Made by a program: the position numbers and the translations under genes. The notes beneath the pieces are model-generated. The model was not told the DNA's origin. It was given only the letters and a program-made list of their open reading frames with translations, and did no database searches. Below, in pieces: positions 1,457 through 31,084 of a stretch of 32,000 nucleotides of DNA. The stretch lies in NCBI GenBank assembly GCA_964640155.1, contig CAZXEQ010000006.1, positions 9,013 through 41,012 on the forward strand. The letters are read 5' to 3'. Position 1 is the stretch's first letter. Each line of letters opens with the position of its first letter. Source of the stretch: an uncultured bacterium. GTDB lineage: Bacteria > Auribacterota > JACPWU01.

Positions 1457-4400
1457 AATTTATTTCTTTTTCATTTAAATAATGATCTTACTGATAGCGG
1501 CGCCCAAAATAAAACAGCTTCTTTGGGAGGAAGTGCTTCTTACACTGCTTCTGGAAAATACAGCGATGCAGTAAGCCTCGATGGAAGTGGTTACGTTGCT
1601 GTCAGTGATATGAATATGTCCACCACTCAAAGCTATACTGCCATGGCATGGTTCAAAGCTTCGGCGTTAGGCAGCAGCAACAATCAAATCATTGACACAA
1701 GAGCTTCAGGTTTTACAATACCTCTTCGTATGTTTATAAATAATGGAGAATTTGCCTGTTCCATTGAAACAGCAGGGGCCACCTACGCAACAGCAACATC
1801 AACCATTACCACTAACACCTGGTATCATGGGGCTTGTGTTTATAATTCAACTACACGCGTTTTATCTGCCTATCTTGATGGTACTTTTATTGGAAGTGTG
1901 ACCATTCCAGCTACAGATGTTTCTAGTACAGAATTTCATATAGGTGATGACCCTACTTTCAGCGGAGAAGGATGGACAGGGCTTATTGATGATGTGGTTG
2001 TTTATCCAAGAGTTCTAACGCCCACACAAATCAATACAGCCTACTCTTCTTCTTCAGAACATACTTACCTTACACTAACAGCGTATGATAATAATTCAGG
2101 AACTTTTGAATATGATGGATCTTCTAGCTATAGTTCTCTCTCAGGAGGAAATGATTATTATCATCTTGAAATTGATGGATCTGGAAGCTTCACACACACA
2201 AACACTTTAAATGTAGCAGGAAATTTAACCATTGCTCAGGGAACTTTGAACAGCAATGGACAAAATATTAACTTGAGTGGGAATTGGAATAATTCAGGAA
2301 CATATACCAGCGGCTCAAACACTGTGACCTTTGAAGGTCCTAACACTCAAACTCTCACATCGGGAGGGACAGGGACAGGCCAAGATTTTAATAATATCAC
2401 CATTTCAAAAGCATTGGGAACCGTTTCTCTACAAACAAACCCTCTTGATGTAGATGGAAATTTTACTTTAGATTCTGGGACTTTTTCTCAAGGGGATTTG
2501 ACCATAACAGTAGGTAATTTTATTATGAATAATGGAACATTTACAGGGGGTTCAGCTGCTGTTACTGTCAACACAGATTTCACACTTTCTGGAGGAGCGT
2601 TTACAAGCACCTCCAATACTTTAAATGTCTCAGGAGATTTTTCTCACACGGCAGGCACGTTTTTACATAATTCAGGAACTGTATCGCTATCTGGAGCAGA
2701 TCAAGATATTACGGGATCAACGACATTTTATCATTTCTCAAAAATTGTAGCTTCCTCCGCTGCTTTAAATTTTGAATCAGACTCTATTACAACTGTTGAA
2801 GGAACTTTAACACTCAAGGGTGCTGCAAGCAACCTCTTAAGCATTCGATCAAGCTCAGTAGGAACTCAAGCTAAAATTGATCCTCAAGGACCTAGAGTCA
2901 TTGAATATTTAGATGTCAAAGACAGTAACAATCTTACTTTACCTCAAATCTCCTGTGTAACAGGATGTATTAACTCTGAGAATAATCTTCAGTGGAATTT
3001 TACAGCCCCTACCATTGGCTTTACAACAACATCTACCAGTGGTTCTGAAAGTGTTACTCCTATTAGTATTGGAATTACATTATCGGAAAGCATTGATCAA
3101 ACAGTAACCGTTTCTTATGCAACTTCAGGAGGAACAGCAACAGGCAGTGGAACAGATTATACTTTACCCTCAGGAACAGCAACAATCGCTGCAGGAAGCA
3201 CAACCACAAATATTTCATTGGCAGTGGTAAATGATTCGACCGATGAATCTAATGAAACAGTGGCCATCACGCTTTCAAATCCAATCAATGCAACATTGGG
3301 AGCCAATACAATTCATACTTATACTATTCTTGATAACGACGATACGGTTGATCCTACACTAGATACAGACGGGGATGGATTAACGGATCAAGAAGAAGAA
3401 ATATTGGGAACAAATCCCAACAGTTCTGATACGGATGGAGACGGAATGCCTGATTTAGAAGAAGCCATTTCAGGAACTGATTCTAATGATTCCTCATCAT
3501 ACAATTCTATTCTCTTTCAAGATGATTTCTCAAATAATGCCAACCCCAAGGGATGGACTGAAAACTCTGACACAAGCAACAATGTTTCTTGGAATATCTC
3601 CGCAGGTAAACTAAATATGACAGCCACCAGTTCTGGCTACGCTTATTACAGCCCATCTACCTTGAACAGTTATATCTCTAGAGTTAATAAAATAGCCATT
3701 ACTTATGATGTTCAATTTTCAAATAGCAATGGTTGGGGTGGTCTTTGGTTATGGGGTGTATATATTGATATTAATAGGTTTCGTTCAGGAGTTAGAGATG
3801 TTTTAGCAGAGATAAGTACAGGCGTAGGAATGTATCACTTCTACAGTGGTATTCCTGACAATAATCAACATCACGTATTGATTCTTGTTTCAAAAGCATC
3901 TCCTTATTATAAAATGAGTCTTTACATAGACACCAAACCTATTTTCATTGATGAATCCATTGAAATCAGTTCTTTTCTGAGTAGTAGAGTCGGTCTTGTA
4001 TCCCCTTATTCAGCAGCAAATGCCATCTATGATAATTTTACAATTTGGGCTAATCCCAATCCAGCTTTGCTCCCCTTCTCAGAAGACTTTAGTACAGAAA
4101 GTTATGGATTATGGACCAGTTCTGGCAATAGCAATATTATATGGGATTTTAATGCCGGAAATCTTCAATCACAAAACTCTGTGTCTGGCTCAGGTTATGG
4201 CTATCTCCAACATGCATTAATGGATATTTCAGGAAAAGACGTTGTGATTGAATATGACACAAGATTCTTAGGAGGGACAACTTGGGGAGGAGTTTTGTGG
4301 AGAGGAATTGGTTGTGATGTAAATGTTAATCGTTCAGGGTGGAGAGATGGATCTTTTGAAGGGTATAATGGAACTTATCAGTTCTACACAGGGCTTTCAG

Positions 4401-10212: not shown

Positions 10213-11568
10213 ATGAACCCAACGAAAAAAAGAATCATTCTAGCAAGCGGTGCAAGAACTCCCATTGGACATGTCAACAAATCCTTGGCTGACTTAAGAC
10301 CAGATGAACTCGGCACAATGGCTATTAAAAATGTGCTTGAGAAATCAAAAATAGATCCTAATGAAGTAGATGGTGTGCTCTTAGGTTGGGTTGGACAACT
10401 TAGCAATGCACCCAATATTGCAAGAGTTTGTGCTCTCAATGCAGGACTTCCAGAAAAATCCGTTGCTTATACGCTTCATGTCAATTGTGTTTCTGGAATT
10501 GAAGCAGTCGCTTCAGCGGCAAGACAAATTCTGGTAGGAGAAGGCGATGTATTTATTGCAGGTGGTACAGAAAGCATGAGTTCTTTCCCCTACTCCATTC
10601 GAGGCGCACGTCGATATCGAGGACTTAAAACACTCGATGACTTAAAAAAGAATTGGGATCATCTTCTCACCGATCCACATATTGAAATTGGAGACTGCAT
10701 GCTCGAAGGCTTGCGAGACCCCGTCAAAGGAATGATCATGGCTGAAACTGCAGAAATTTTAGCTCAACTCTATGATATTTCTAGAGACGAACAAGATGAT
10801 TATGCAGTACAAAGTTATCGAAGAGCCATTGATGGAATTCGTAAAGGGATTTTCAAATCCTATGTCCACCCTGTTGTTAAAAATGGACAAACGCTTCTAG
10901 AACAAGATGAAAATCCTCTTCAAAGAGAAGCTTTTGTTCTAGATCCTGAAAAAGCTAAAAAAGCTATCCCAATGTTTGATAATGAAGAATATCCTTTTAA
11001 GAAATTTTGGGATACTTATGGACATGAAATTCCAGGTAAAAAATTCATAGAAGGAAAAACAAAAGGGACTATTACACCTTTCAATTCATGTCCAAGAAGC
11101 GATGGAGCTGCTGCTGTCATCGTAGCATCTGAAGAGAAAGCAAAAAAATTAAAATTGGACATCATTGCCGAATTGAAAGGCTGGGGCTTTGCCGGAGTTA
11201 ATCCTGCCCTCATGGGAATGGGACCTGCCCACGCAGCACAAAAAGCTCTTAGTTGGATTAATATTCCTTTTGAGAAAATGGATATCATTGAACTTCATGA
11301 AGCATTTGCTGCAGGATGTTTGGCCATTTTTAAAGAGGGAAAGAAAAAATTTAATCATAATTGGGAATCCAAATGGAAAGAAGGTCGTGTGAATCCCTAT
11401 GGAGGGTCTATTGCTCTGGGCCATCCCTTGGCTGCTTCTGGTACACGCATTCTGCTCAATCTAGCTTATGAACTTAAAGCGGATCCCAAAGCAAAAATGG
11501 GTTTGGCAGCTGCTTGTGCAGCCGGCGGAGTTTCAGGAAGTGCAATTTTAGAAAAATATGAAGGATAA
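10213..11568 (+). CDS. Thiolase (acetyl-CoA C-acetyl/acyltransferase family), long form of 451 aa
   Basis: Nucleophile Cys in VNCVSGIEA, plus ELHEAFAA, GGSIALGHPLAASG and C-terminal ACAAGG. It looks ~50-60 aa longer than the typical thiolases I recall, with extra sequence mid-protein. Confidence 0.85.
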   Translation: MNPTKKRIILASGARTPIGHVNKSLADLRPDELGTMAIKNVLEKSKIDPNEVDGVLLGWVGQLSNAPNIARVCALNAGLPEKSVAYTLHVNCVSGIEAVASAARQILVGEGDVFIAGGTESMSSFPYSIRGARRYRGLKTLDDLKKNWDHLLTDPHIEIGDCMLEGLRDPVKGMIMAETAEILAQLYDISRDEQDDYAVQSYRRAIDGIRKGIFKSYVHPVVKNGQTLLEQDENPLQREAFVLDPEKAKKAIPMFDNEEYPFKKFWDTYGHEIPGKKFIEGKTKGTITPFNSCPRSDGAAAVIVASEEKAKKLKLDIIAELKGWGFAGVNPALMGMGPAHAAQKALSWINIPFEKMDIIELHEAFAAGCLAIFKEGKKKFNHNWESKWKEGRVNPYGGSIALGHPLAASGTRILLNLAYELKADPKAKMGLAAACAAGGVSGSAILEKYEG

Positions 11569-11673
11569 AATTAGGGGATTGTGGATAGTAAATTGTTAAA
11601 AACTATGATAATGAGAAATGATAATCAAAATATATTATCTTTTCCATTATTCCCCATCCACATAATAAATAAT

Positions 11674-14325: not shown

Positions 14326-15127
14326 CCACAGCATCTTTGCTCTCCCCTTTGCATTTGCAAGCGTTCTTCTCGTGTCAAAATATTTTCAAATTCGCTCCAT
14401 TAAAATTCTATGGATCCTCATTGCTATGATTTCTGCTCGCAGTGCCGCCATGGCTTTTAATCGTATGATCGATTCAAAAATTGACGCCTTAAATCCTAGA
14501 ACTGTAAAAAGAGAAATACCTCAAGGCATTATTAGCTGGAAAGGGGCATTAACACTTGCTGTTTCTTCTTCTCTTCTATTCATTTATTCTACTTTTCAAC
14601 TCAACATTCTTTGCGCCATTCTCTCCTTGCCAACACTTATTCTTTTTATATTTTATCCTTACACCAAACGCTTCACTTGGCTTTCTCATTTATTTCTAGG
14701 TTTGAGTTTAGGCCTGGCACCTCTAGGAGCGTGGGTTGCCTTTACCGAAAGCTTGCAAGGTCCTATTTTACTATTGGGGTTGAGTGTTCTCTTTTGGGTT
14801 GCAGGATTTGACATTATCTATTCTACACAAGATGTTGAGTTTGATAAATCTCAAGGTCTCTTTAGCATTCCAGCTCAATTTGGCATTCAAAAAGGTCTTA
14901 AAATAGCCATGATTTTTCACGGAATTGCTTTAAGTCTTCTTATTTGGACAGGCATTCTTTTTCATCTTTCTTTTGCTTATTTTTTAGGATGTTCATTTAT
15001 TGGAGCAATAATGCTTTACGAACATTCTTTGGTAAATCCAACTGATCTTTCAAAAGTTCAAACCGCTTTCAATGCCAATGGTTGGATCAGTCTTCTTTAT
15101 CTTGTGTCTACATGGATGGGATTATGA
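14273..15127 (+). CDS. UbiA-family aromatic polyprenyltransferase (MqnP-like, menaquinone via futalosine; alternatively 4-hydroxybenzoate polyprenyltransferase)
   Basis: About 8-9 TM helices, Asp-rich motif NRMIDSKIDALNPRT and a second motif YSTQDVEFD. The N-terminus IRFSHSIFALPFA resembles the MqnP-type subgroup rather than E. coli UbiA (R.DKPIG). It overlaps the upstream deaminase gene by 53 nt. Confidence 0.8.
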   Translation: MKSFITILTRYARLIRFSHSIFALPFAFASVLLVSKYFQIRSIKILWILIAMISARSAAMAFNRMIDSKIDALNPRTVKREIPQGIISWKGALTLAVSSSLLFIYSTFQLNILCAILSLPTLILFIFYPYTKRFTWLSHLFLGLSLGLAPLGAWVAFTESLQGPILLLGLSVLFWVAGFDIIYSTQDVEFDKSQGLFSIPAQFGIQKGLKIAMIFHGIALSLLIWTGILFHLSFAYFLGCSFIGAIMLYEHSLVNPTDLSKVQTAFNANGWISLLYLVSTWMGL

Positions 15128-16445: not shown

Positions 16446-16538
16446 AGAGGCATCAAATTTTCGGGTTCAGAAGTGCGTGAGTATTCGCAACTTTTTGGTC
16501 ATCCATTGATCAGCCTCTTGTGCATAAGAGAACCCTTC

Positions 16539-19328
16539 CTAAAAACCATCTTCACTTGGAGGTGTCTTGACCGAAGCGGAGGGCTTTTCTGAACCAGAAG
16601 GTGCGACTTGAGTCTGAGTCTTTTGAATCTCAGGGCTTTGAGTTTGCAATGGAGTTTGAGTAGAAGTCTGTGATTGAGAAACCTCAGTCTTTGAAGAAGT
16701 TACAGATGTCGAGAAACCATTCATACTCACAATATAATCTCTAATCGCTCTTGTTTGCCAAACAGGATCCGCCAAAAAAGCATCTAACTCTGATCCAAAT
16801 AAATTTTCAAAGTATTGTTTTGTGTCTTTAAACTGAGGAGTTTTTAAAAGATTCGGGACAAAAGAAACACGCTTATCTCCCATTTTTGGAAAATTCGTCG
16901 GCATTTTTGTTCCAGGCTGTATTACTTCTGGTTCTAAAATCCAGCGAGCAATCCATTCATGCCTGAGACGATCTTTAGCTAAACCTAAATTAGGTCCCAA
17001 ATTCACCACTTGAGACCCTTTAGTAGATGGATCCATACTCACAGGGTGACAGGACATACATTTAAACATTTCAAAAAGTTTTTCCCCTGCTTTACGTTCA
17101 CGTTCAGGAACTTGAACATCTCCAAAATAATCAAATTCATAAGGATACTTTGCATCTGATAGTGATGAAAAATATGCCACAATGCTTGAAGCATCTTCAT
17201 CTGAAAGATTAAATTTCGGCATCCGCACCGTAAGCCAGGGTCTAATTAAAATAGGATTTTTCAAGAAGCTAAAAAGCCACTCAGGTTGAACTTTCGCACC
17301 TTCTCCCTCTAAACTAGGAGCAATTGCACTGCCCTTACCTTCAATGACATGACAGCCTGTACAGTTCAAGTCTCGAACTAAATTGCGCCCTTTCTCGATA
17401 GCATCTTCTTTTTTGGAAAGATTCTTTTTAAACTCGGACGGAATCTCCTTTTCTTCGCCACGGAAACTCGTCAACAAAGTAACCAGAGAATTGGCCTCTT
17501 CATCCGACAGATGAAAATTGGGCATCTTTTGTTCGATACGCTCCGTTGCATAAACTTGAGGATTTTTAATTTTATTAAAAGTCCAATCCCAAAGCGTATG
17601 AGGAATATCGTGCGCATAACCGAAAAAGAGAAGACTTAAATCCTTCGCTCCAAATGCTGTAAGTTCTGCACCCACGCGAGGTCTATTTTCAAGACCCGGA
17701 ACATTATGGCATCCAAAACATCCAAGGGACCCCATCAAATTCTTTCCCTTTTTTGCAAGGCCCACATCCACTGTTTCTGCCTTCGATGGATCCAGCCCCC
17801 AACTGTCATTTTTCAAAGTTATTAAATAACTGATCAAATGGGCAATTTCATCATCTTTAAGCCGCATGTTAGGCATTTTTCCATGAGGTAAATATTCACG
17901 AGGATTTTTTAACCAACGATACAGCCATTCTGGTCGAACTTTATTCCCCACATGTGTTAAATCAGGGGCAAAGGTTTCTCCTTCTTCACCTATTTTGTGA
18001 CAAGCAATACAAGCCAAATCTTTTACCAATTTTTTCCCTTCTTCTAGAGAACCCTTTTCTAAGGCCAATTTCTCATCACTCGTCATAGGAACGCTAGAGC
18101 TCAAACTTCCTAAATAATGTGCCATAGCCTTTGCTTCATCTTCTGTTACCTTAAATTGAGGCATACGTGTTGTTGGACTTAAACTTTTGGGATCTTTAAT
18201 CCAACGAGCCATCCAGTCCACAGTTGTTTTTTCGGAAATTTTGTCTAGTTCTGGTCCAACTTTTTTCGCATTTTCATATCCAGAAGCCAAATGACACCCC
18301 GAACAACCTAATTGGCCAAACAAGACTTTTCCTTGAGTTAATGTCGCGGCCTCTGGGACCTCCACTGTAGCATGACACTTCACGCAGGAGCTTTCTACCT
18401 TGTGATCCCTTAACAAAGGAAACTCCCAATGATGTACCTCTCCATGCGCATCCTTTACCGTTAAGGCAGATCCTTGTCCTCCATGGCAGGACGTACATCC
18501 AAATTTCTCTGGAGGGTGTTTTTTTAACAAAATATCAAGCTTGGGATGAGTTCGAAAGGGTTGTTCGTATTTTTGAGGATCTTCAAATCCGGGACGATCA
18601 ATCGCCAAATGACAGGTTTGACAACGATCTACTTTGTTTAAATCTTGGACAACAATCTGTTCAATTTTAGGACTTTTACGTTTTATATCTTTTACTTTTT
18701 TCTCAAGCATTTCGAGCTTGGTAGTCATCTGAATGATTTCTTTTTCAGTGTTTGAGACTTCTTCATCATGTGCTTGTACAATTCTCCACAAAGGAGCACT
18801 TTGATTCTCTACCTCTTTAATCTTAAGAGAAAGCTCATCTAATTCTTTTTGGTGTTGATCCACCTCCTGCTTTCGCCTATCAATATCTTTACTGTTTTCT
18901 AGTTTTGCTTTTTCAAAAAGATAATACACCGCATCAAAACGACTTTTCATGAATTGAGATTCTTTACCTAAATCTTCTAACTTATATTTTAGATCAGTGA
19001 GTTGATTTTTTGCTTGGATATAAGCTTTTTGTGCTTGAGAGTCTTGGGGACCCCCCTGAAGGGTTTTTAATTTTTCCTGAAGTGAACGATAAATTTTTTG
19101 CACTGCTTCTGATTCTAAATTTTGTTTCTCTATATTAAATTCCTCTGTCGCTTTTTCCAGCTCTAATTTAAAAAAAGTTTTTTGGAAATCTTTCCATGGA
19201 CGTCGATCAAAAGTCTCATCCCAAATCGCAAAAAGAGTAAGAAAAATAAGGCAAGCGACCGTAATAAAAAAAGGGATGCGAAAAGATTGCTCTTCTGTAG
19301 GTTTCTTTCGCCATTCATTTAAGCCCAT
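16539..19328 (-). CDS. Membrane-anchored octahaem cytochrome c: N-terminal TM helix, ~190-aa coiled-coil stalk, trihaem module, five tandem class-I monohaem domains and an S/T/Q/P-rich tail
   Basis: Eight CxxCH motifs: CQTCH, CTSCH, CVKCH, CSGCH, CIACH, CFGCH, CTGCH, CMSCH. The last five each sit in a repeated G..L...L.C..CH....G...P.L......V.P.W...W...P.......MP.F.L.D.E...L..YL unit with a distal MP (Met ligand). TM segment: IPFFITVACLIFLTLFAIW. Last gene of the Rieske/cyt b operon. Confidence 0.88.
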   Translation of the reverse strand: MGLNEWRKKPTEEQSFRIPFFITVACLIFLTLFAIWDETFDRRPWKDFQKTFFKLELEKATEEFNIEKQNLESEAVQKIYRSLQEKLKTLQGGPQDSQAQKAYIQAKNQLTDLKYKLEDLGKESQFMKSRFDAVYYLFEKAKLENSKDIDRRKQEVDQHQKELDELSLKIKEVENQSAPLWRIVQAHDEEVSNTEKEIIQMTTKLEMLEKKVKDIKRKSPKIEQIVVQDLNKVDRCQTCHLAIDRPGFEDPQKYEQPFRTHPKLDILLKKHPPEKFGCTSCHGGQGSALTVKDAHGEVHHWEFPLLRDHKVESSCVKCHATVEVPEAATLTQGKVLFGQLGCSGCHLASGYENAKKVGPELDKISEKTTVDWMARWIKDPKSLSPTTRMPQFKVTEDEAKAMAHYLGSLSSSVPMTSDEKLALEKGSLEEGKKLVKDLACIACHKIGEEGETFAPDLTHVGNKVRPEWLYRWLKNPREYLPHGKMPNMRLKDDEIAHLISYLITLKNDSWGLDPSKAETVDVGLAKKGKNLMGSLGCFGCHNVPGLENRPRVGAELTAFGAKDLSLLFFGYAHDIPHTLWDWTFNKIKNPQVYATERIEQKMPNFHLSDEEANSLVTLLTSFRGEEKEIPSEFKKNLSKKEDAIEKGRNLVRDLNCTGCHVIEGKGSAIAPSLEGEGAKVQPEWLFSFLKNPILIRPWLTVRMPKFNLSDEDASSIVAYFSSLSDAKYPYEFDYFGDVQVPERERKAGEKLFEMFKCMSCHPVSMDPSTKGSQVVNLGPNLGLAKDRLRHEWIARWILEPEVIQPGTKMPTNFPKMGDKRVSFVPNLLKTPQFKDTKQYFENLFGSELDAFLADPVWQTRAIRDYIVSMNGFSTSVTSSKTEVSQSQTSTQTPLQTQSPEIQKTQTQVAPSGSEKPSASVKTPPSEDGF

Positions 19329-19354
19329 CGTTCAATTTCCCTTTGTCCTTGGAG

Positions 19355-20227
19355 TTATACGTTAAACCAGGGGGTTACCCAGATATATTTGATATTAAAT
19401 GCATAGCGAAGAAACATTTTGATAGGAAGTCCCATCATACTCAAGAAAAGAAACACAAAAATAGAAAATCTCATCCATCCCATTTCTTGAAGCAACGGAC
19501 TTTTACGCCATCTCAAAATCAAATACCATAAAAAGCCTAAAGAATAATATGCTCCCAAAACAGCAGCACCAAACAAATTAGCAACCAGAGGAGAACGAAT
19601 TTTTAAAAGATCTGAGAGATTGACATTTGCTACTGCTACTACTTTATGAGGATCCCATTCTTCCGTAATCCAAAATAAATTCCATCCTGGACCTCGTAAA
19701 AAAGTTCCCACTATAATCATGGCCACCCACAACCCTAAAAAACCAAAACAAAAAATTAAAATAGCCTTCTTTCTTTCCTTAAAAGTGTAATAACCATTTC
19801 CCAATGGATTACGATCAATGTAAGGAATGGCCATCAACCCTACAATAATGAGTGTTGGCAAAACAACTCCTGCAATCCATGGATCAAAATAAACAAGCAT
19901 TTCCTGAAGTCCCAGAAAATACCATGGCGCTTTGCTCGGATTAGGTGTCACAGCAGGATTGGCAGGTAGTTCAAGCGGAGCATCTATGCCTAAAGACCAT
20001 GCAAAAAGAATGAGCAAAGTAATCAAAACAGACATGAACTCGGCTCGAACTAGATAAGGGAAAACAAAAACCTTATCTACTTCTTTACGAGGATCCGGCT
20101 TAACTCGATAACGGTCATTATGGAATGCCTGTTTTAAAGCCAAACTCAAAAAGAAAACCACAAGAAATAACATTCCAACAATAGGAATATTATCTGGCTG
20201 AGTAATAATTTTTAGAAAATGATTCAT
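19355..20227 (-). CDS. Cytochrome b C-terminal domain / subunit IV-like protein of a b6-type Rieske/cyt b complex (enlarged, ~6 TM, 290 aa)
   Basis: Qo-loop region NPSKAPWYFLGLQEMLVYF aligns with the PEWY(F) motif of cytochrome b / subunit IV. It is multi-TM and lies immediately downstream of the b6-like gene. Confidence 0.75.
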   Translation of the reverse strand: MNHFLKIITQPDNIPIVGMLFLVVFFLSLALKQAFHNDRYRVKPDPRKEVDKVFVFPYLVRAEFMSVLITLLILFAWSLGIDAPLELPANPAVTPNPSKAPWYFLGLQEMLVYFDPWIAGVVLPTLIIVGLMAIPYIDRNPLGNGYYTFKERKKAILIFCFGFLGLWVAMIIVGTFLRGPGWNLFWITEEWDPHKVVAVANVNLSDLLKIRSPLVANLFGAAVLGAYYSLGFLWYLILRWRKSPLLQEMGWMRFSIFVFLFLSMMGLPIKMFLRYAFNIKYIWVTPWFNV

Positions 20228-20232
20228 AGTTT

Positions 20233-20379
20233 AAAACCGTAGATAGCAATTCGTAATTCGCAGTTCGTTAAAATTAGTAGCTCGTAGTTCGCAATTCATA
20301 GTTCGTTGAAAACAGCTATTGGGTTAAGATAATTTTAGTTTTTATCTTTTGCGATCTACGATTTACTAACTACGAACTA
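20233..20379. repeat. Inverted tandem-heptamer element 1: about 9 copies of (T/C)A(G/A)TTCG, a 46-nt AT-rich spacer, then 4 copies of the reverse complement CGAnCTA
   Basis: Read directly. 20240-20267 is TAGATAG CAATTCG TAATTCG CAGTTCG. 20278-20305 is TAGCTCG TAGTTCG CAATTCA TAGTTCG. 20352-20379 is CGATCTA CGATTTA CTAACTA CGAACTA. The 28-nt arms are complementary at 22/28 positions. The element fills almost the whole cyt b6 / subunit IV intergenic gap. Confidence 0.85.
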
Positions 20380-20386
20380 CTTGTTT

Positions 20387-21253
20387 TTAAAGAGGACCTG
20401 ATATTCCTCCATCCTTCCTCACTCTCCAAAAGTGAATCGTCACAAAAACCAAGAGGAAAAATGGCAAAGCAATACAATGCAATACATAAAATCTCAAAAG
20501 CGTTGGAGCACCTACTTGTGTACCTCCCAAAAGTAAGAAGCGCACATCATTATCGGGTTGCATTCCAAGTTGAGGACCAAAAGGTCCTTCATGACCTAAA
20601 AGAGGCGTTGCACGGGCCATGTTTGTTCCCACAGTCACTGCCCAAATCGCTAGCTGATCCCAAGGAAGAAGATAGCCCGTAAAACTTAAAATCATTGTTA
20701 GAACTAAAAGAATGACACCCACACCCCAGTTAAATTCACGAGGTGGTTTGTAAGAACCGGTCATGAAGACACGAAACATATGAAGCCACACGGTGATAAT
20801 CATGCCATGTGCGGACCATCGATGCATATTTCTCAAAAGCATTCCAAAGGGAACATCAAATTGGAGATATTTCATGTCGCTATAAGCGTATTCAGCTGTA
20901 GGTCGATAATAAAACATCAAAGCAACACCGGTCACCAGAAGAATCAAGAAAAGAAAGAAACTTAAACCACCCATACACCAAGTATGCTTAAACTTGACTG
21001 CACCCCTGAGAACTTTTACAGGATGCAAATGTAAAAATACATTTCCAATAATCGCCAAAGTTCGATTTTTAGGTGTGTCTTTATAATCATGGCGAAACAT
21101 AGAACGCCAAACTTGCGTTTTACGCAATTTTTGACGCAAAGTTTCTTTCACAATAGGCGGCTTAGCAGTCTCCACAGGTTTTGATGCCGTCGGTGCTGCA
21201 CCCGTAGAAGCTGGTGATGATGTTGGTGATACAGGCTTATTATCTTCTGGCAT
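20387..21253 (-). CDS. Cytochrome b6-type (N-terminal, 4-helix) cytochrome b with a P/A/S/T-rich N-terminal extension
   Basis: Helix B haem ligands H-x13-H ([15 protein letters not shown]). Helix D H-x14-H ([16 protein letters not shown]), which is the b6/Firmicute-type spacing. WCMGG aligns with the YC(L/F)GG Cys that binds haem ci covalently. The split-gene organisation has a separate subunit IV. Confidence 0.88.
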
Positions 21254-21283
21254 TGATTTACCTTATCTTGATATTGATTTATA

Positions 21284-21847
21284 CTATATTTTGAGTAGCG
21301 CTTCTGGTTTATTCCACTCCCCTTTTTCAAATAGAAAAAGAGTGCCCTTATCAATCAATAATTGTCCATCGTCTGCAAGTGTAATTTTTACACGATCTAA
21401 AGCCCGAGGCGCAGGTCCTTCAAAATTAACCCCATCTCGACGAAAACCACTTCCATGACAGGGACATTTAAATTTATCCTCTACCGATAACCATACAGGC
21501 GTACAACCTAAATGGGTACACTTCGCAAGAAGGGCGTAAAAACCTTCCGAAGTTCGTGCAATCCATACACGCTGTTCAGAAGCCCAACGTGTGCTGATTT
21601 CTCCTGGAGGATATTCTTGAGGAAAACCCGCTTTAAAAATATTGGAAGGTTCAAAAAGCACTCGAGGGAAAAGATATCGCACAAGGCCCACCAGCCAGGA
21701 GCTCATCACAAGGCCAAAGAAATACCAGCCCGCTTTTACAAAAAAATCCCGTCGCGTATAAAGAGAAGCATCATCTTGAGACTGGATTTTCTTTTTTAAA
21801 TCTGGCTTTTTAACTTCCGCCGTAACATTCACTGGCTCAGTTGTCAT
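21284..21847 (-). CDS. Rieske [2Fe-2S] subunit with a Tat signal/anchor
   Basis: Box I CTHLGC, box II CPCHGS, twin-arginine motif TRRDFFVKAG followed by a hydrophobic helix. First gene of the operon. Confidence 0.9.
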   Translation of the reverse strand: MTTEPVNVTAEVKKPDLKKKIQSQDDASLYTRRDFFVKAGWYFFGLVMSSWLVGLVRYLFPRVLFEPSNIFKAGFPQEYPPGEISTRWASEQRVWIARTSEGFYALLAKCTHLGCTPVWLSVEDKFKCPCHGSGFRRDGVNFEGPAPRALDRVKITLADDGQLLIDKGTLFLFEKGEWNKPEALLKI

Positions 21848-27155: not shown

Positions 27156-27221
27156 AATAATGACCTAATTTTAATAAAAATAAATAACATCCTTAATTTT
27201 ACATTTTAATTTTTGATTTTT

Positions 27222-28124
27222 TTATACTTTCTCCGGACTACTTTTACCAAGTAACCCAGCAGGCTTCCAAAAAAGAATAAAAATTAAAATAAAAAATGCG
27301 ACTGCATCACGATAAGTGCTCGAGAGATAGCCGGAGACCAAAACTTCGACAATTCCCATAATCATACCTCCAAGAACTGCTCCAAAAATATTTCCAATTC
27401 CGCCCAAAACAGCAGCCACAAAAGCCTTCAGTCCAGGCATAATTCCCATCAAAGGTTCCACTTTAGGATTAGAAAGGCTTACCAAAAGGCCTGCAACCGC
27501 AGCCAAAGCAGAGCCCACAAAAAAGGTAAAACTAATAACTCGATTGACGGCAATTCCCATTAACCCTGCAACTTCATGACTAAATGAAACGGCACGCATC
27601 GCTCGCCCTATTCTTGTTTTCATCACAATCCAATGAAGTGCCAACATGAGGAGAAAAGAAACACCTAAAATTAAAATTTGAATATTATTAATAACCACGT
27701 CTTTCCAACGAAAGGCTTCTTTCACTGCAAAAAGAGGAGGAAAGAATTTTGGATCTGCACCAAAAATCAGTTGTCCTGCATTTTGCAACAAAAGAGAAAC
27801 ACCGATGGCTGTAATTAAAGCTGTTAAACGAGGAGAATTTCTTAAAGGACGATAACAAAATCTTTCAATAAGCATACCCAATAAACCACAAGTGAGCATT
27901 GCAAAAACAAAAACCAAACAAGCTTTTCCTAAACCTGGCGAAGAAGGAACTTTGAGCCAAATGGCCGAATAATAACCGACCATAGCCCCCAACATATAAA
28001 GATCACCATGGGCAAAATTGATGAGGCGCAACACCCCGTAAACCATGGTATATCCCAAGGCAATAAGGGCATAAATACTTCCCCAACTAATTCCATTGAT
28101 CAATTGCTGGATGAATTCTGACAT
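27222..28124 (-). CDS. livH: Branched-chain amino-acid ABC transporter permease LivH
   Basis: The N-terminus FIQQLINGISWGSIYALIALGYTMVYGVLRLINFAHGD matches the LivH signature. About 8 TM helices. Confidence 0.9.
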   Translation of the reverse strand: MSEFIQQLINGISWGSIYALIALGYTMVYGVLRLINFAHGDLYMLGAMVGYYSAIWLKVPSSPGLGKACLVFVFAMLTCGLLGMLIERFCYRPLRNSPRLTALITAIGVSLLLQNAGQLIFGADPKFFPPLFAVKEAFRWKDVVINNIQILILGVSFLLMLALHWIVMKTRIGRAMRAVSFSHEVAGLMGIAVNRVISFTFFVGSALAAVAGLLVSLSNPKVEPLMGIMPGLKAFVAAVLGGIGNIFGAVLGGMIMGIVEVLVSGYLSSTYRDAVAFFILIFILFWKPAGLLGKSSPEKV

Positions 28125-28127
28125 AAT

Positions 28128-28212
28128 CGTCGTGCGTATTGCGTCGTACGTACTGCGCCATAAATATTATATTGATTCACGCAGCACGCATCACGCAAAG
28201 CGCAGTACGGCC
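28128..28212. repeat. Inverted tandem-heptamer element 2: 5 copies of CGTnnTG, an AT-rich spacer, then 5 copies of CACGCAn (reverse-complement family nTGCGTn)
   Basis: Read directly. 28128-28162 is CGTCGTG CGTATTG CGTCGTA CGTACTG CGCCATA. 28178-28212 is CACGCAG CACGCAT CACGCAA AGCGCAG TACGGCC. GTACTGCGC (28150-28158) pairs with GCGCAGTAC (28200-28208). The element fills the entire gap between the binding-protein stop (28214) and the livH start (28124). Confidence 0.85.
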
Positions 28213-28213
28213 T

Positions 28214-29332
28214 TTAAGGTTCTACCCTTTTAAAAAACTTGAACTGGGCATTTTCAATTTTAAGAACGACCGCTGCTTTCTGAGCATTCCGATTTTCATC
28301 AAGCGTCGTTTTTCCAGAAATACCTTCAAGGTTCTTGGTCTGTGCTAAAGCATCTCGAATTTTACTCCCAGAAACAGAACCTGCCTGTTCAATCGCATGC
28401 ACAAGCATGTTGGCTGCATCATACCCTAAAACAGCCATGGCATCTGGAACTTCACCATATTTGTTTTTAAATTTTTGTATAAAATCCTGAATCAGAGGAC
28501 TTGGATCATCTGCAGCATAATGATTGCTAAAGTATGTTCCTTCTAGAGCCTCTCCACCAATTTCAATGGTACGTGGAGAATCCCATCCATCCCCACCTAA
28601 TAAATTCCCTTGATATCCTAATTCCCTAGCCTGACGAGCAATTAAACCCACTTCCGTGTAATACCCAGGAATGAAAATAGCTTCTGGCTCCTCGCTTTTG
28701 ATGGCCGTCAGTTGAGCTCTAAATTCAATATCCCCTTCTGAATAGGATTCGTTTGAAACAATTTCTCCACCCAATTCCTTAAAGGTTTGCTCAAAAAAGA
28801 GAGCCAATCCCATACTATAATCATTCTTAATATCTTTAAAAATAGCGGCTTTGCGAACTCCTAAAGTTTCGTAGGCAAATTTTGCCATGACTTCGCCTTG
28901 AAAAGGGTCAATAAAGCATACGCGGAAAATATAATCTCCGATCTCTGTCACCTTAGGATTAGTAGAAGCAGGAGTGATCATTGGAATCGATGCTCTCTGG
29001 CATTCAGGGGCAGCAGCTAAACTTCTAGAGCTTGCAACTTCTCCAATCACAGCGACGACTCGATCTCGTTTTAACAATTTTACTACAGCTGTTTTTGCTT
29101 CTTCTGGTTTACTCTGATCATCCTCAACAATCCATCGAAGTTTTTTACCAACAACACCACCCTTATCATTAGCTTCGGTCAATGCCAACTCAATTCCTTG
29201 CACCATGGAACGACCAAAAGTTGCTGTTCCCCCCGTCATCGATGCATAAACGCCAATGGCAACATCATCACTTTTCTTACCGCAGCCCCACAACATCACC
29301 AACATGGCAAGACACCATAAATATTTTTTCAT
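28214..29332 (-). CDS. Branched-chain amino-acid ABC transporter substrate-binding lipoprotein (LivJ/LivK family)
   Basis: Lipoprotein signal MKKYLWCLAMLVMLWGC (lipobox LWGC). Type-I periplasmic binding protein pattern (IG....lTG..a..G......G..lA..e.N..GG..G.....v..DD...P..A). First gene of the liv operon. Confidence 0.88.
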   Translation of the reverse strand: MKKYLWCLAMLVMLWGCGKKSDDVAIGVYASMTGGTATFGRSMVQGIELALTEANDKGGVVGKKLRWIVEDDQSKPEEAKTAVVKLLKRDRVVAVIGEVASSRSLAAAPECQRASIPMITPASTNPKVTEIGDYIFRVCFIDPFQGEVMAKFAYETLGVRKAAIFKDIKNDYSMGLALFFEQTFKELGGEIVSNESYSEGDIEFRAQLTAIKSEEPEAIFIPGYYTEVGLIARQARELGYQGNLLGGDGWDSPRTIEIGGEALEGTYFSNHYAADDPSPLIQDFIQKFKNKYGEVPDAMAVLGYDAANMLVHAIEQAGSVSGSKIRDALAQTKNLEGISGKTTLDENRNAQKAAVVLKIENAQFKFFKRVEP

Positions 29333-30953: not shown

Positions 30954-31084
30954 TCCAAAAAACCTCTCAAAAAGGTCCCAGGTGCAAGGCGCTTGCAAGC
31001 GACCGCGGAGGTGTACGTTTGATGGTACACCGCACAAGGGAGCGCAGTAAGGAACGTAGCAGATGGGCCTTTTTCAGAGGTTTT
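30954..31084. repeat. About 130-bp GC/CpG-rich long imperfect palindrome filling the convergent intergenic gap (element 3)
   Basis: The outer arm AAAACCTCTCAAAAAGGTCCCA (30959-30980) pairs with TGGGCCTTTTTCAGAGGTTTT (31064-31084), with one mismatch and one indel. Apical stem GGTGTAC (31010-31016) pairs with GTACACC (31025-31031). There is a perfect 10-bp palindrome GCTTGCAAGC (30991-31000) and CCGCGG at 31003-31008. An A-run lies on the left flank and a T-run on the right. Confidence 0.7.

Follow-up and report, generated by a model that had tools for sequence, protein, structure and literature searches.

In a 32,000-nt stretch of DNA from an uncultured bacterium of the Auribacterota (GenBank assembly GCA_964640155.1, contig CAZXEQ010000006.1, positions 9,013 to 41,012; hereafter the window), an inverted pair of 7-nt tandem repeat arrays occupies the gap between the livK-like and livH genes of an ATP-binding cassette (ABC) transporter operon. 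The element belongs to a widespread class of heptamer-array hairpins that spans many bacterial phyla and whose repeat unit is specific to the locus. At about 85% genome identity, the element at this junction has been replaced, not diverged. With moderate confidence, we infer that this inverted pair of heptameric simple-sequence repeat (SSR) arrays was made in place and folds as an intercistronic stem-loop, which would lower permease expression and couple it to that of the binding protein.

The operon lies on the minus strand in the order livK-like, livH, livM, livG, livF. The livK-like open reading frame (ORF; 28214–29332) encodes a 372-residue periplasmic substrate-binding protein (Pfam Peripla_BP_6, 1.1e-64) and ends in a TAA stop at 28214–28216, and the 300-residue livH-type permease ORF (27222–28124) begins with an ATG at 28122–28124. 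Within the intervening 89 nt (28125–28213), the element extends over 28128–28212, starting 1 nt after the stop and finishing 3 nt before the ATG. These borders, together with the heptamers themselves, had been proposed from the sequence alone, and rereading reproduced them exactly. On the sense strand, a G+T-rich 5′ arm of five heptamers (28178–28212; GGCCGTA CTGCGCT TTGCGTG ATGCGTG CTGCGTG) is followed by a 15-nt AT-rich spacer (28163–28177; AATCAATATAATATT, with one C) and an A+C-rich 3′ arm, also of five heptamers (28128–28162; TATGGCG CAGTACG TACGACG CAATACG CACGACG). The plus strand accordingly reads CGTCGTG CGTATTG CGTCGTA CGTACTG CGCCATA over 28128–28162 and CACGCAG CACGCAT CACGCAA AGCGCAG TACGGCC over 28178–28212. 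The spacer had been described as 15 nt of AT only; the length is right, but the plus-strand sequence AATATTATATTGATT holds one G, and the uninterrupted AT run is 14 nt long (28160–28173). The perfect pairing claimed for a shifted register is borne out, with GTACTGCGC (28150) fully complementary to GCGCAGTAC (28200). Upstream of livH there is no Shine-Dalgarno motif, as had been noted; this absence is real but ordinary rather than exceptional here, because only about 8 of the 25 window genes carry such a motif (scored as a 4-mer).

The element has a pronounced 7-nt periodicity: the fraction of matching positions reaches 0.61 at lag 7 and 0.71 at lag 14, whereas other lags give 0.05–0.31. Matches at lags 7 and 14 cover 64 of 98 positions, compared with 26.2 ± 4.2 in 20,000 shuffles (p ≤ 5e-5), and Tandem Repeats Finder detects the arrays with periods of 7 and 14. 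A repeat search aligned 30-nt arms (28128–28157 and 28180–28209) that are 73% complementary. The original prediction of a sharp GC/CpG island in AT-rich DNA also held: the CpG observed/expected ratio is 2.1 in the element and 0.67 in the window, the GC contents are 0.52 and 0.38, and no other 85-nt stretch of the window contains 12 CpG, making this the densest CpG 85-mer. In the sense RNA, the arms are predicted to form a 25-bp stem-loop (28128–28209) of four helices (3+4+6+12 bp) separated by 2×2 internal loops, with its foot 4 nt past the livK-like stop and 3 nt ahead of the livH ATG. Folding of the 89-nt gap gives −39.2 kcal/mol (z −4.0), a value that 1 of 200 shuffles matched. The antisense RNA folds more weakly (−31.2, z −2.7), and DNA parameters give the same topology at −20.7 (z −2.35). 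The stable structure foreseen at this site was thus recovered by RNA folding, and a stem that extends to 3 nt before the ATG would, as suggested, occlude the livH initiation region.

Several conventional identities were considered and set aside. A known RNA family was rejected, as no Rfam model reached its gathering score in the window; the sub-threshold matches were to miRNA-hairpin models only (24.9 bits against an 80-bit cut-off) and are spurious. No tRNA was detected in the window. An internal promoter was rejected as well, since a promoter scan returned no promoter-like site on the minus strand within the livK–livH gap. The orthologous elements have no sequence homology on which a covariance model could be based.

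This lack of homology is best seen in the relatives. The closest genome is the metagenome-assembled genome (MAG) Candidatus Auribacterota bacterium SZ_szas25bin.51 (locus L002), which shares 95% LivK identity and, over 11.6 kb, 84.6% DNA identity with the window; the next relatives are groundwater MAGs labelled "Chlamydiae bacterium" (76–77%). The window's own contig was found only as the assembly of a single sequencing run, and it occurs in SRR8893623. An inverted heptamer array stands at the livK–livH gap in five of seven relatives, each time with an unrelated unit: TAATTCG/TAGTTCG in L002, AAAATCA in L005 (77% LivK identity), GTGAGNN in L008 (76%), TCCGTAT in L210 (74%), and GGGGCTA-type units in L004 (83%), the last parsed by eye and missed by the census detector. 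The remaining two have a non-heptamer spacer (L213, 75%) and a gap of only 4 nt (L212, 74%). When the relatives are aligned, the codons flanking the gap align and the gap sequence does not. The cytochrome b gap of L002 carries yet another heptamer unit. Unit families recur within genomes, with GTGAGNN, AAAATCA and TCCGTAT each found three times in L008, L005 and L210, respectively, and L008 holds at least five different heptamer units. In the same lineage, heptamer hairpins also occupy livH–livM and livG–livF gaps, a cytochrome b gap, and convergent and divergent spacers; by eye, about half of the longer intergenic gaps in Auribacterota-type loci carry such arrays. Near-identical assemblies (window/L001, L002/L003, L005/L006/L007, L008/L009/L011 and L210/L211) are all 99.99–100% identical. 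Independent assemblies of other samples are 100% identical through the elements, which rules out assembly artefacts and also hypervariability over short times. Two further features of L008 were noted. Among its heptamer arrays is an inverted array of an 8-nt unit (14702–14785; GTCTAAGT GCTTAAGT GTCTAAGT GATTAAGT ... ACTTAAGC), so the period is not strictly 7. Unrelated to the heptamer arrays, a MITE-like (miniature inverted-repeat transposable element) palindromic element of about 137 nt (…CCCCTAGTAGTCGCCCGATTCATCGGGCAATCCATGCAAGGGGCACAAGGCTGCCCCATAAATGGGGCGACTAC…) is present in two copies, 96% identical, at 3340–3473 and 16446–16582.

We also assembled a census of 83 non-redundant loci (1.25 Mb) comprising LivK homologues and their flanks from many phyla. 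Inverted repeats were collected with a strand-neutral finder and transition-neutral scoring, each was assigned its best-fitting arm period, and Markov shuffles served as the control. The census yielded 285 inverted repeats against 111 in the shuffles. The best arm period was 7 in 35 of the 285 and in none from the shuffles, and every other period accounted for at most eight. Period-7 hairpins were found at 20 of the 83 loci, including Thermoanaerobaculia and other Acidobacteriota, Zixibacteria, Fibrobacteria, Gemmatimonas and Tepidisphaerales, and many lie exactly between a livK-type stop and a livH-type start. By spacer type, 18 heptamer hairpins are co-directional, seven convergent and three divergent. 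The earlier suggestion of a generative mechanism or family instead of coincidence is strongly supported by this excess of period 7 and by the non-homologous heptamer hairpins in the same gap of five relatives. The window's own unit is also common in environmental DNA, as single arrays and as inverted pairs, given that an exact-pattern scan of metagenomes with TGCGTGNTGCGTGNTGCG matched at least 120 stretches; a second TGCGTG array was not found in the window or in 88 other loci. The family AGTCCTT/AGTCCGT is reused by different Thermoanaerobaculia genomes, and CAGCTGT/CAGCTGA recurs after livK (L035 2350–2482, L040 4598–4672, L053 4587–4667, L061 3554–3659). The reuse across Thermoanaerobaculia indicates that members of a lineage share unit families, although different loci carry different ones.

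The heptamer hairpins follow common rules. Paired arms have a median length of 30 nt (4.3 units) and a modal length of four units, and the loops have a median of 24 nt. The 5′ arm is the G+T-rich one in 26 of 33 heptamer hairpins (p = 0.0013), whereas other inverted repeats show no bias (107 vs 126). Among the metagenome matches listed, TGCGTGN inverted pairs have the order TG-array then CA-array in 22 of 22. This polarity reads alike from both strands, so the G/U-rich array follows the upstream gene and the A/C-rich array precedes the downstream gene. For single TGCGTGN arrays at the metagenome loci (at least 120), the orientation relative to start codons was 12 vs 4, an unreliable count, as crude ORF calls in high-GC DNA enclosed 71 of the 129 arrays. 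In 12 livK–livH heptamer gaps, the stem begins a median of 5 nt past the stop and ends a median of 7 nt short of the start, the tails after the stem are mostly not U-rich, and, read by eye, none has a Shine-Dalgarno motif in its final 20 nt. Adjacent units resemble each other more at the outer than at the inner ends (5.5 vs 4.5 of 7 positions; p = 0.004), which fits growth at the stem foot, a trend from which detection bias cannot be fully excluded. The junction itself is unusual within these operons. Across 71 livK-type operons, the livK–livH gap has a median of 77 nt, compared with −4 to 7 nt for the livH–livM, livM–livG and livG–livF junctions; it measures at least 40 nt in 45 of the 71, against 6–14 such gaps at each other junction, and 21 of 44 long livK–livH gaps fold with z < −3. 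The positional analogy with malE–malF that had been drawn for this element therefore holds generally, and these long, structured gaps suggest that the operon needs a spacer after livK.

Two sister arrays accompany the element, giving three distinct heptamer units in one window (TGCGTGN, TAGTTCG and AAAAATN). The minus-strand gap between two cytochrome b genes (20228–20386) contains inverted TAGTTCG/TAATTCG-type heptamers and a second, A/C-rich array beside the downstream start codon, and folds at −41.2 kcal/mol (z −5.1). An element at 20233–20379 with the same architecture and another heptamer had been pointed out at the outset, and its design is indeed the common one. The second, also on the minus strand, is an AT-only array that fills the livH–livM gap (27156–27221; sense AAAAATC AAAAATT AAAATGT AAAATTA). 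This gap measures 66 nt in the window and 7 nt in L002, which implies a recent gain or loss of about 60 nt. The cytochrome b hairpin stands within an operon (16539–21847) that encodes a Rieske protein, a split cytochrome b whose N- and C-terminal parts are separate genes, and a 929-residue multi-haem cytochrome c; such a bc-type complex is unusual for a candidate phylum of the PVC (Planctomycetes–Verrucomicrobia–Chlamydiae) group. Elsewhere in the window, a GC-rich (0.53) spacer between convergent genes (30954–31082; L002 2267–2417) is bounded by a 20-nt inverted repeat, 90% complementary (AAAACCTCTCAAAAAGGTCC / GGGCCTTTTTCAGAGGTTTT). In contrast to the heptamer elements, this spacer is 83% conserved between the window and L002. 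No Rfam family matches it, and it may represent a bidirectional terminator or a small RNA.

Among described repeats, the closest counterparts are heptameric SSR arrays, which are defined by at least three head-to-tail 7-nt units, with convergent stem-forming arrays, polarity, about four units and one dominant G-tract unit (Mrazek 2007; Rehm 2015). The element has five units per arm, convergent arms, a G+T-rich 5′ arm and an A+C-rich 3′ arm, and the class has a mode of four units. It departs from the definition in its unit, as no single G-tract unit dominates the window and TGCGTG lacks a G-tract. In Xanthomonas, GGGAATC heptamer repeats occur as 70–75 convergent inverted pairs per genome that could form stem-loops (Rehm et al. 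2015, PMC4692102). That study found a clear preference for about four units, attributed to G-quadruplex formation; the G-rich sequence lies on the coding strand immediately downstream of stop codons and on the non-coding strand immediately upstream of start codons; the repeats favour gaps between co-directional genes; and their length and sequence differ among close species (PMC4692102). No regulatory role and no link to mobile elements were identified, and the authors pass on a suggestion that the replicative polymerase slips in steps of 7 nt; Nostoc is credited with GGGGA(C/T)T heptamer repeats (PMC4692102). Intergenic tandem 7-nt units, the preference for about four of them, convergent pairs, polarity, co-directional gaps and variation all hold here too. 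The Xanthomonas and Nostoc repeats use one dominant G-tract unit, whereas here almost every locus has its own unit, the majority of the units (TGCGTGN, TAGTTCG, AAAATCA and others) are unable to form G-quadruplexes, and the lineages belong to uncultured phyla. We conclude that the element is of a known heptamer-repeat kind, following the Xanthomonas rules and differing in its locus-specific unit, its lack of G-quadruplex capacity and its lineage.

A second relevant system consists of TAACTGA repeats of 2–6 units that end about 1 nt before start codons (MacGregor 2015, PMC4679880). They are found in marine Beggiatoaceae, Cyanobacteria and Bacteroidetes, the downstream genes mostly lack a Shine-Dalgarno sequence, strains differ by indels in 7-nt steps, and a translational role with S1, Csp or CsrA as binders was proposed (PMC4679880). 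The likeness lies in heptamer arrays that abut start codons without a Shine-Dalgarno motif. The TAACTGA system differs in having one unit, nearly always as direct repeats and with no hairpin; a single inverted case occurs in BOGUAY. The oldest example of heptamers is the short tandemly repeated repetitive (STRR) elements of heterocystous cyanobacteria (Mazel et al. 1990), in which three fixed units each reach about 100 copies per genome in non-coding DNA. In 1997, Vioque reportedly described STRR units that lengthen a helix of RNase P RNA and hence both arms of a stem. STRR units are fixed, whereas those here are locus-specific. A cyanobacterial STRR or HIP1 (highly iterated palindrome) origin was rejected, the window containing no HIP1 sites and the organism belonging to the Auribacterota.

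The original prediction invoked repetitive extragenic palindromic (REP) elements, which have a genome-wide consensus, a conserved GTAG foot, a link to REP-associated tyrosine transposases (RAYT) and no internal 7-nt periodicity. The position is theirs. Like the malE–malF palindrome (a bacterial interspersed mosaic element, BIME), the element is an extragenic palindrome within an ABC operon, directly after the binding-protein gene, where more binding protein than membrane components is expected. The stem foot reads CGU...ACG, and the element contains neither GTAG nor CTAC; none of the consensus, the foot or the RAYT link was seen for it, the last in a scan of the window's ORFs for transposase domains. 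REPINs, in which two inverted repeats flank a short spacer (PMC3116915), differ from it in the same respects. REP/REPIN identity was rejected: orthologous gaps hold unrelated sequences, a second copy is absent from the 32-kb window and the 88 other loci, and the unit varies by locus. Unlike the heptamer type, two Acidobacteriota-type livK–livH gaps (L052 and L063) do have a truly REP-like sequence in common, carrying the same perfect 20-bp hairpin (GGGGACAGACCCCAATTTCC ... GGAAATTGGGGTCTGTCCCC) after livK. In Clostridia, stem-loops in SRPS (selective RNA processing and stabilisation) operons and internal terminators after binding-protein genes are reported to set ABC-transporter stoichiometry (PMC9045158, PMC4423207). 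Those cases resemble the element in that the binding-protein cistron has a stable stem-loop at its 3′ end. They differ in that they are ordinary hairpins without tandem repeats whose effect was measured, whereas the effect proposed here is inferred.

Given these comparisons, we propose how such an element could arise and act. The arrays would be made in situ through 7-nt replication slippage, while inverted duplication or template switching within the palindrome, at the DNA level, would keep the arms complementary; the observed complementarity includes variable unit positions, for example in L008. Growth would take place mostly at the outer ends and be halted by coding sequences, and this outward growth to the coding borders would explain why the elements exactly fill their gaps. 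In the polycistronic mRNA, the long imperfect stem-loop (−39 kcal/mol) could form the end of the livK segment or protect it, acting as a 3′ stabiliser or as a site of RNase III-type processing, and would bury the start region of livH, where no Shine-Dalgarno motif precedes the ATG. Ribosomes that finish translation at the livK stop, 4 nt away from the foot, would unwind the outer helices and expose the livH start for a short time. The expected outcome would be low permease synthesis coupled to binding-protein synthesis. A related layout occurs in a Zixibacteria locus (L033, 11165–11707), where the livK–livH gap is 543 nt and heptamer arms (GAATGAC... / ...TATCCGT) form one long stem. Its loop holds a gene (ORF 11241–11612, plus strand) for a 123-residue 23S-rRNA-intervening-sequence protein (PF05635, 5e-30). 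The layout resembles an rRNA intervening sequence excised by RNase III, set in an mRNA operon, and by analogy hints that heptamer stems may be RNase III substrates.

A more general version of this proposal, which we advance only tentatively and consider unlikely, is a sequence-independent, self-reinforcing DNA process. A short palindrome would stall replication, slippage would duplicate the outermost 7 nt of the stem on each side, template switching would keep the pairing, and the longer stem would stall replication more. New stems of about 28 bp would thus keep arising in the intergenic gaps of many phyla, growing in 7-nt steps up to the coding sequence, and then be used for RNase III-type processing and for coupling at genes that lack a Shine-Dalgarno motif, and the four-unit rule and polarity of Xanthomonas would not be about G-quadruplexes.

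A number of observations weigh against the proposed origin and function. The link to binding-protein genes drawn in the original prediction does not stand as a specific one: heptamer hairpins also occupy livH–livM, livG–livF and cytochrome b gaps, as well as spacers between convergent or divergent genes, so a function confined to binding proteins cannot account for the class. The two relatives that have no heptamer hairpin at the junction (L212 and L213) imply that the element is dispensable. The window's cytochrome b element and the livK–livH element of L002 share the TAGTTCG/TAATTCG unit family, which could mean mobility. Among the near-identical strains there are zero 7-nt indels, and ongoing slippage was not observed. 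The window's own element reverses the outward-growth trend, its inner units being the more uniform. Sense-strand G-U and A-C mismatches are balanced in the heptamer hairpins (29:28), giving no sign of RNA-level selection; the test is powerless, however, because the control class is equally flat (80:81).

The hairpins could instead be a neutral by-product of slippage and palindrome-templated copying wherever non-coding DNA tolerates them, with coding sequence as the sole growth barrier and no role in livK or livH expression. Occupation of every kind of spacer, complete turnover between relatives, absence from L212 and L213, and the missing G-U excess are all consistent with this account, as is the failure of Rehm et al. 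to identify a regulatory role for the Xanthomonas repeats (PMC4692102). We nevertheless consider it unlikely. The livK–livH junction is the sole one of the operon to keep a long structured spacer across phyla, and a −39 kcal/mol stem 3 nt from a start codon would hardly be without translational effect. The strand-independent polarity and the four-unit mode also require more than random slippage, though the further constraint could come from a mechanistic bias. A different reading of the polarity, in our view quite improbable, takes the single-stranded A/C-rich 3′ array as a platform for an OB-fold (oligonucleotide/oligosaccharide-binding) protein of the S1 or cold-shock type, with roughly one domain per heptamer, that would promote Shine-Dalgarno-independent initiation and be antagonized by the G/U-rich 5′ array. 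It accounts for the A/C-rich array always facing the downstream start codon, the lack of Shine-Dalgarno motifs after the arrays in the 12 livK–livH heptamer gaps and the extra unpaired A/C-rich array beside the start codon in the cytochrome b gap, and it has a precedent in the proposed binders of TAACTGA arrays, which lie about 1 nt before starts without a Shine-Dalgarno sequence (PMC4679880). Binding would have to be almost sequence-blind, however, as the units differ at nearly every locus, and some arrays have the opposite composition (the 3′ arm of L005 is T-rich).

Insertion of a mobile, non-autonomous REP-, REPIN- or MITE-type element, with its transposase encoded elsewhere, appears very improbable. 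Such an event would explain the exchange of the entire gap between relatives, the threefold recurrence of unit families in L008, L005 and L210, and the placement of one family, whose ends are similar (AACAGTA... and ...ATCTACGGTTTT), at two different sites, the window's cytochrome b gap and the livK–livH gap of L002. The flanks of the window and L002 elements, on reading, show no target-site duplication, the loops are unrelated, and the same-family element of L002 differs in loop and length. The TGCGTG array is single-copy across the window and the 88 other loci, none of the window ORFs yielded a transposase domain, REPs do not show an internal 7-nt periodicity, and Rehm et al. saw no link to mobile elements (PMC4692102). 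Most improbable of all, we believe, is an intrinsic terminator or attenuator that halts most transcripts after livK, despite the strong GC-rich stem right after the stop codon, the TTTTTTT that follows the hairpin at the same gap in L002, and a report that internal terminators set ABC-transporter stoichiometry in Clostridia (PMC9045158). The window stem is followed by AUU and then AUG with no U-tract or T-run, a terminator scan returned no site at the element, the 15-nt loop and three internal loops are atypical, and most of the 12 orthologous or analogous gaps lack a U-rich tail. An intrinsic terminator was rejected on these grounds.

Among the long simple-sequence repeats of bacteria, heptamer repeats are the most over-represented, and two detailed studies of them closed with "function remains to be elucidated". 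Here, the same positional rules, polarity and size apply to units incapable of forming G-quadruplexes, in uncultured phyla that include the Auribacterota, Thermoanaerobaculia, Zixibacteria and Fibrobacteria, among others. The question thereby moves from sequence-specific binding to the process that makes 7-nt-periodic hairpins and to the role of a 28-bp stem at a gene junction, for which a single orthologous junction, solved independently many times, provides a natural testing ground. Heptamer hairpins also cause errors in gene calling and assembly. Should the stems govern processing or coupling, they would represent a common and overlooked means of setting the subunit ratios of operons.

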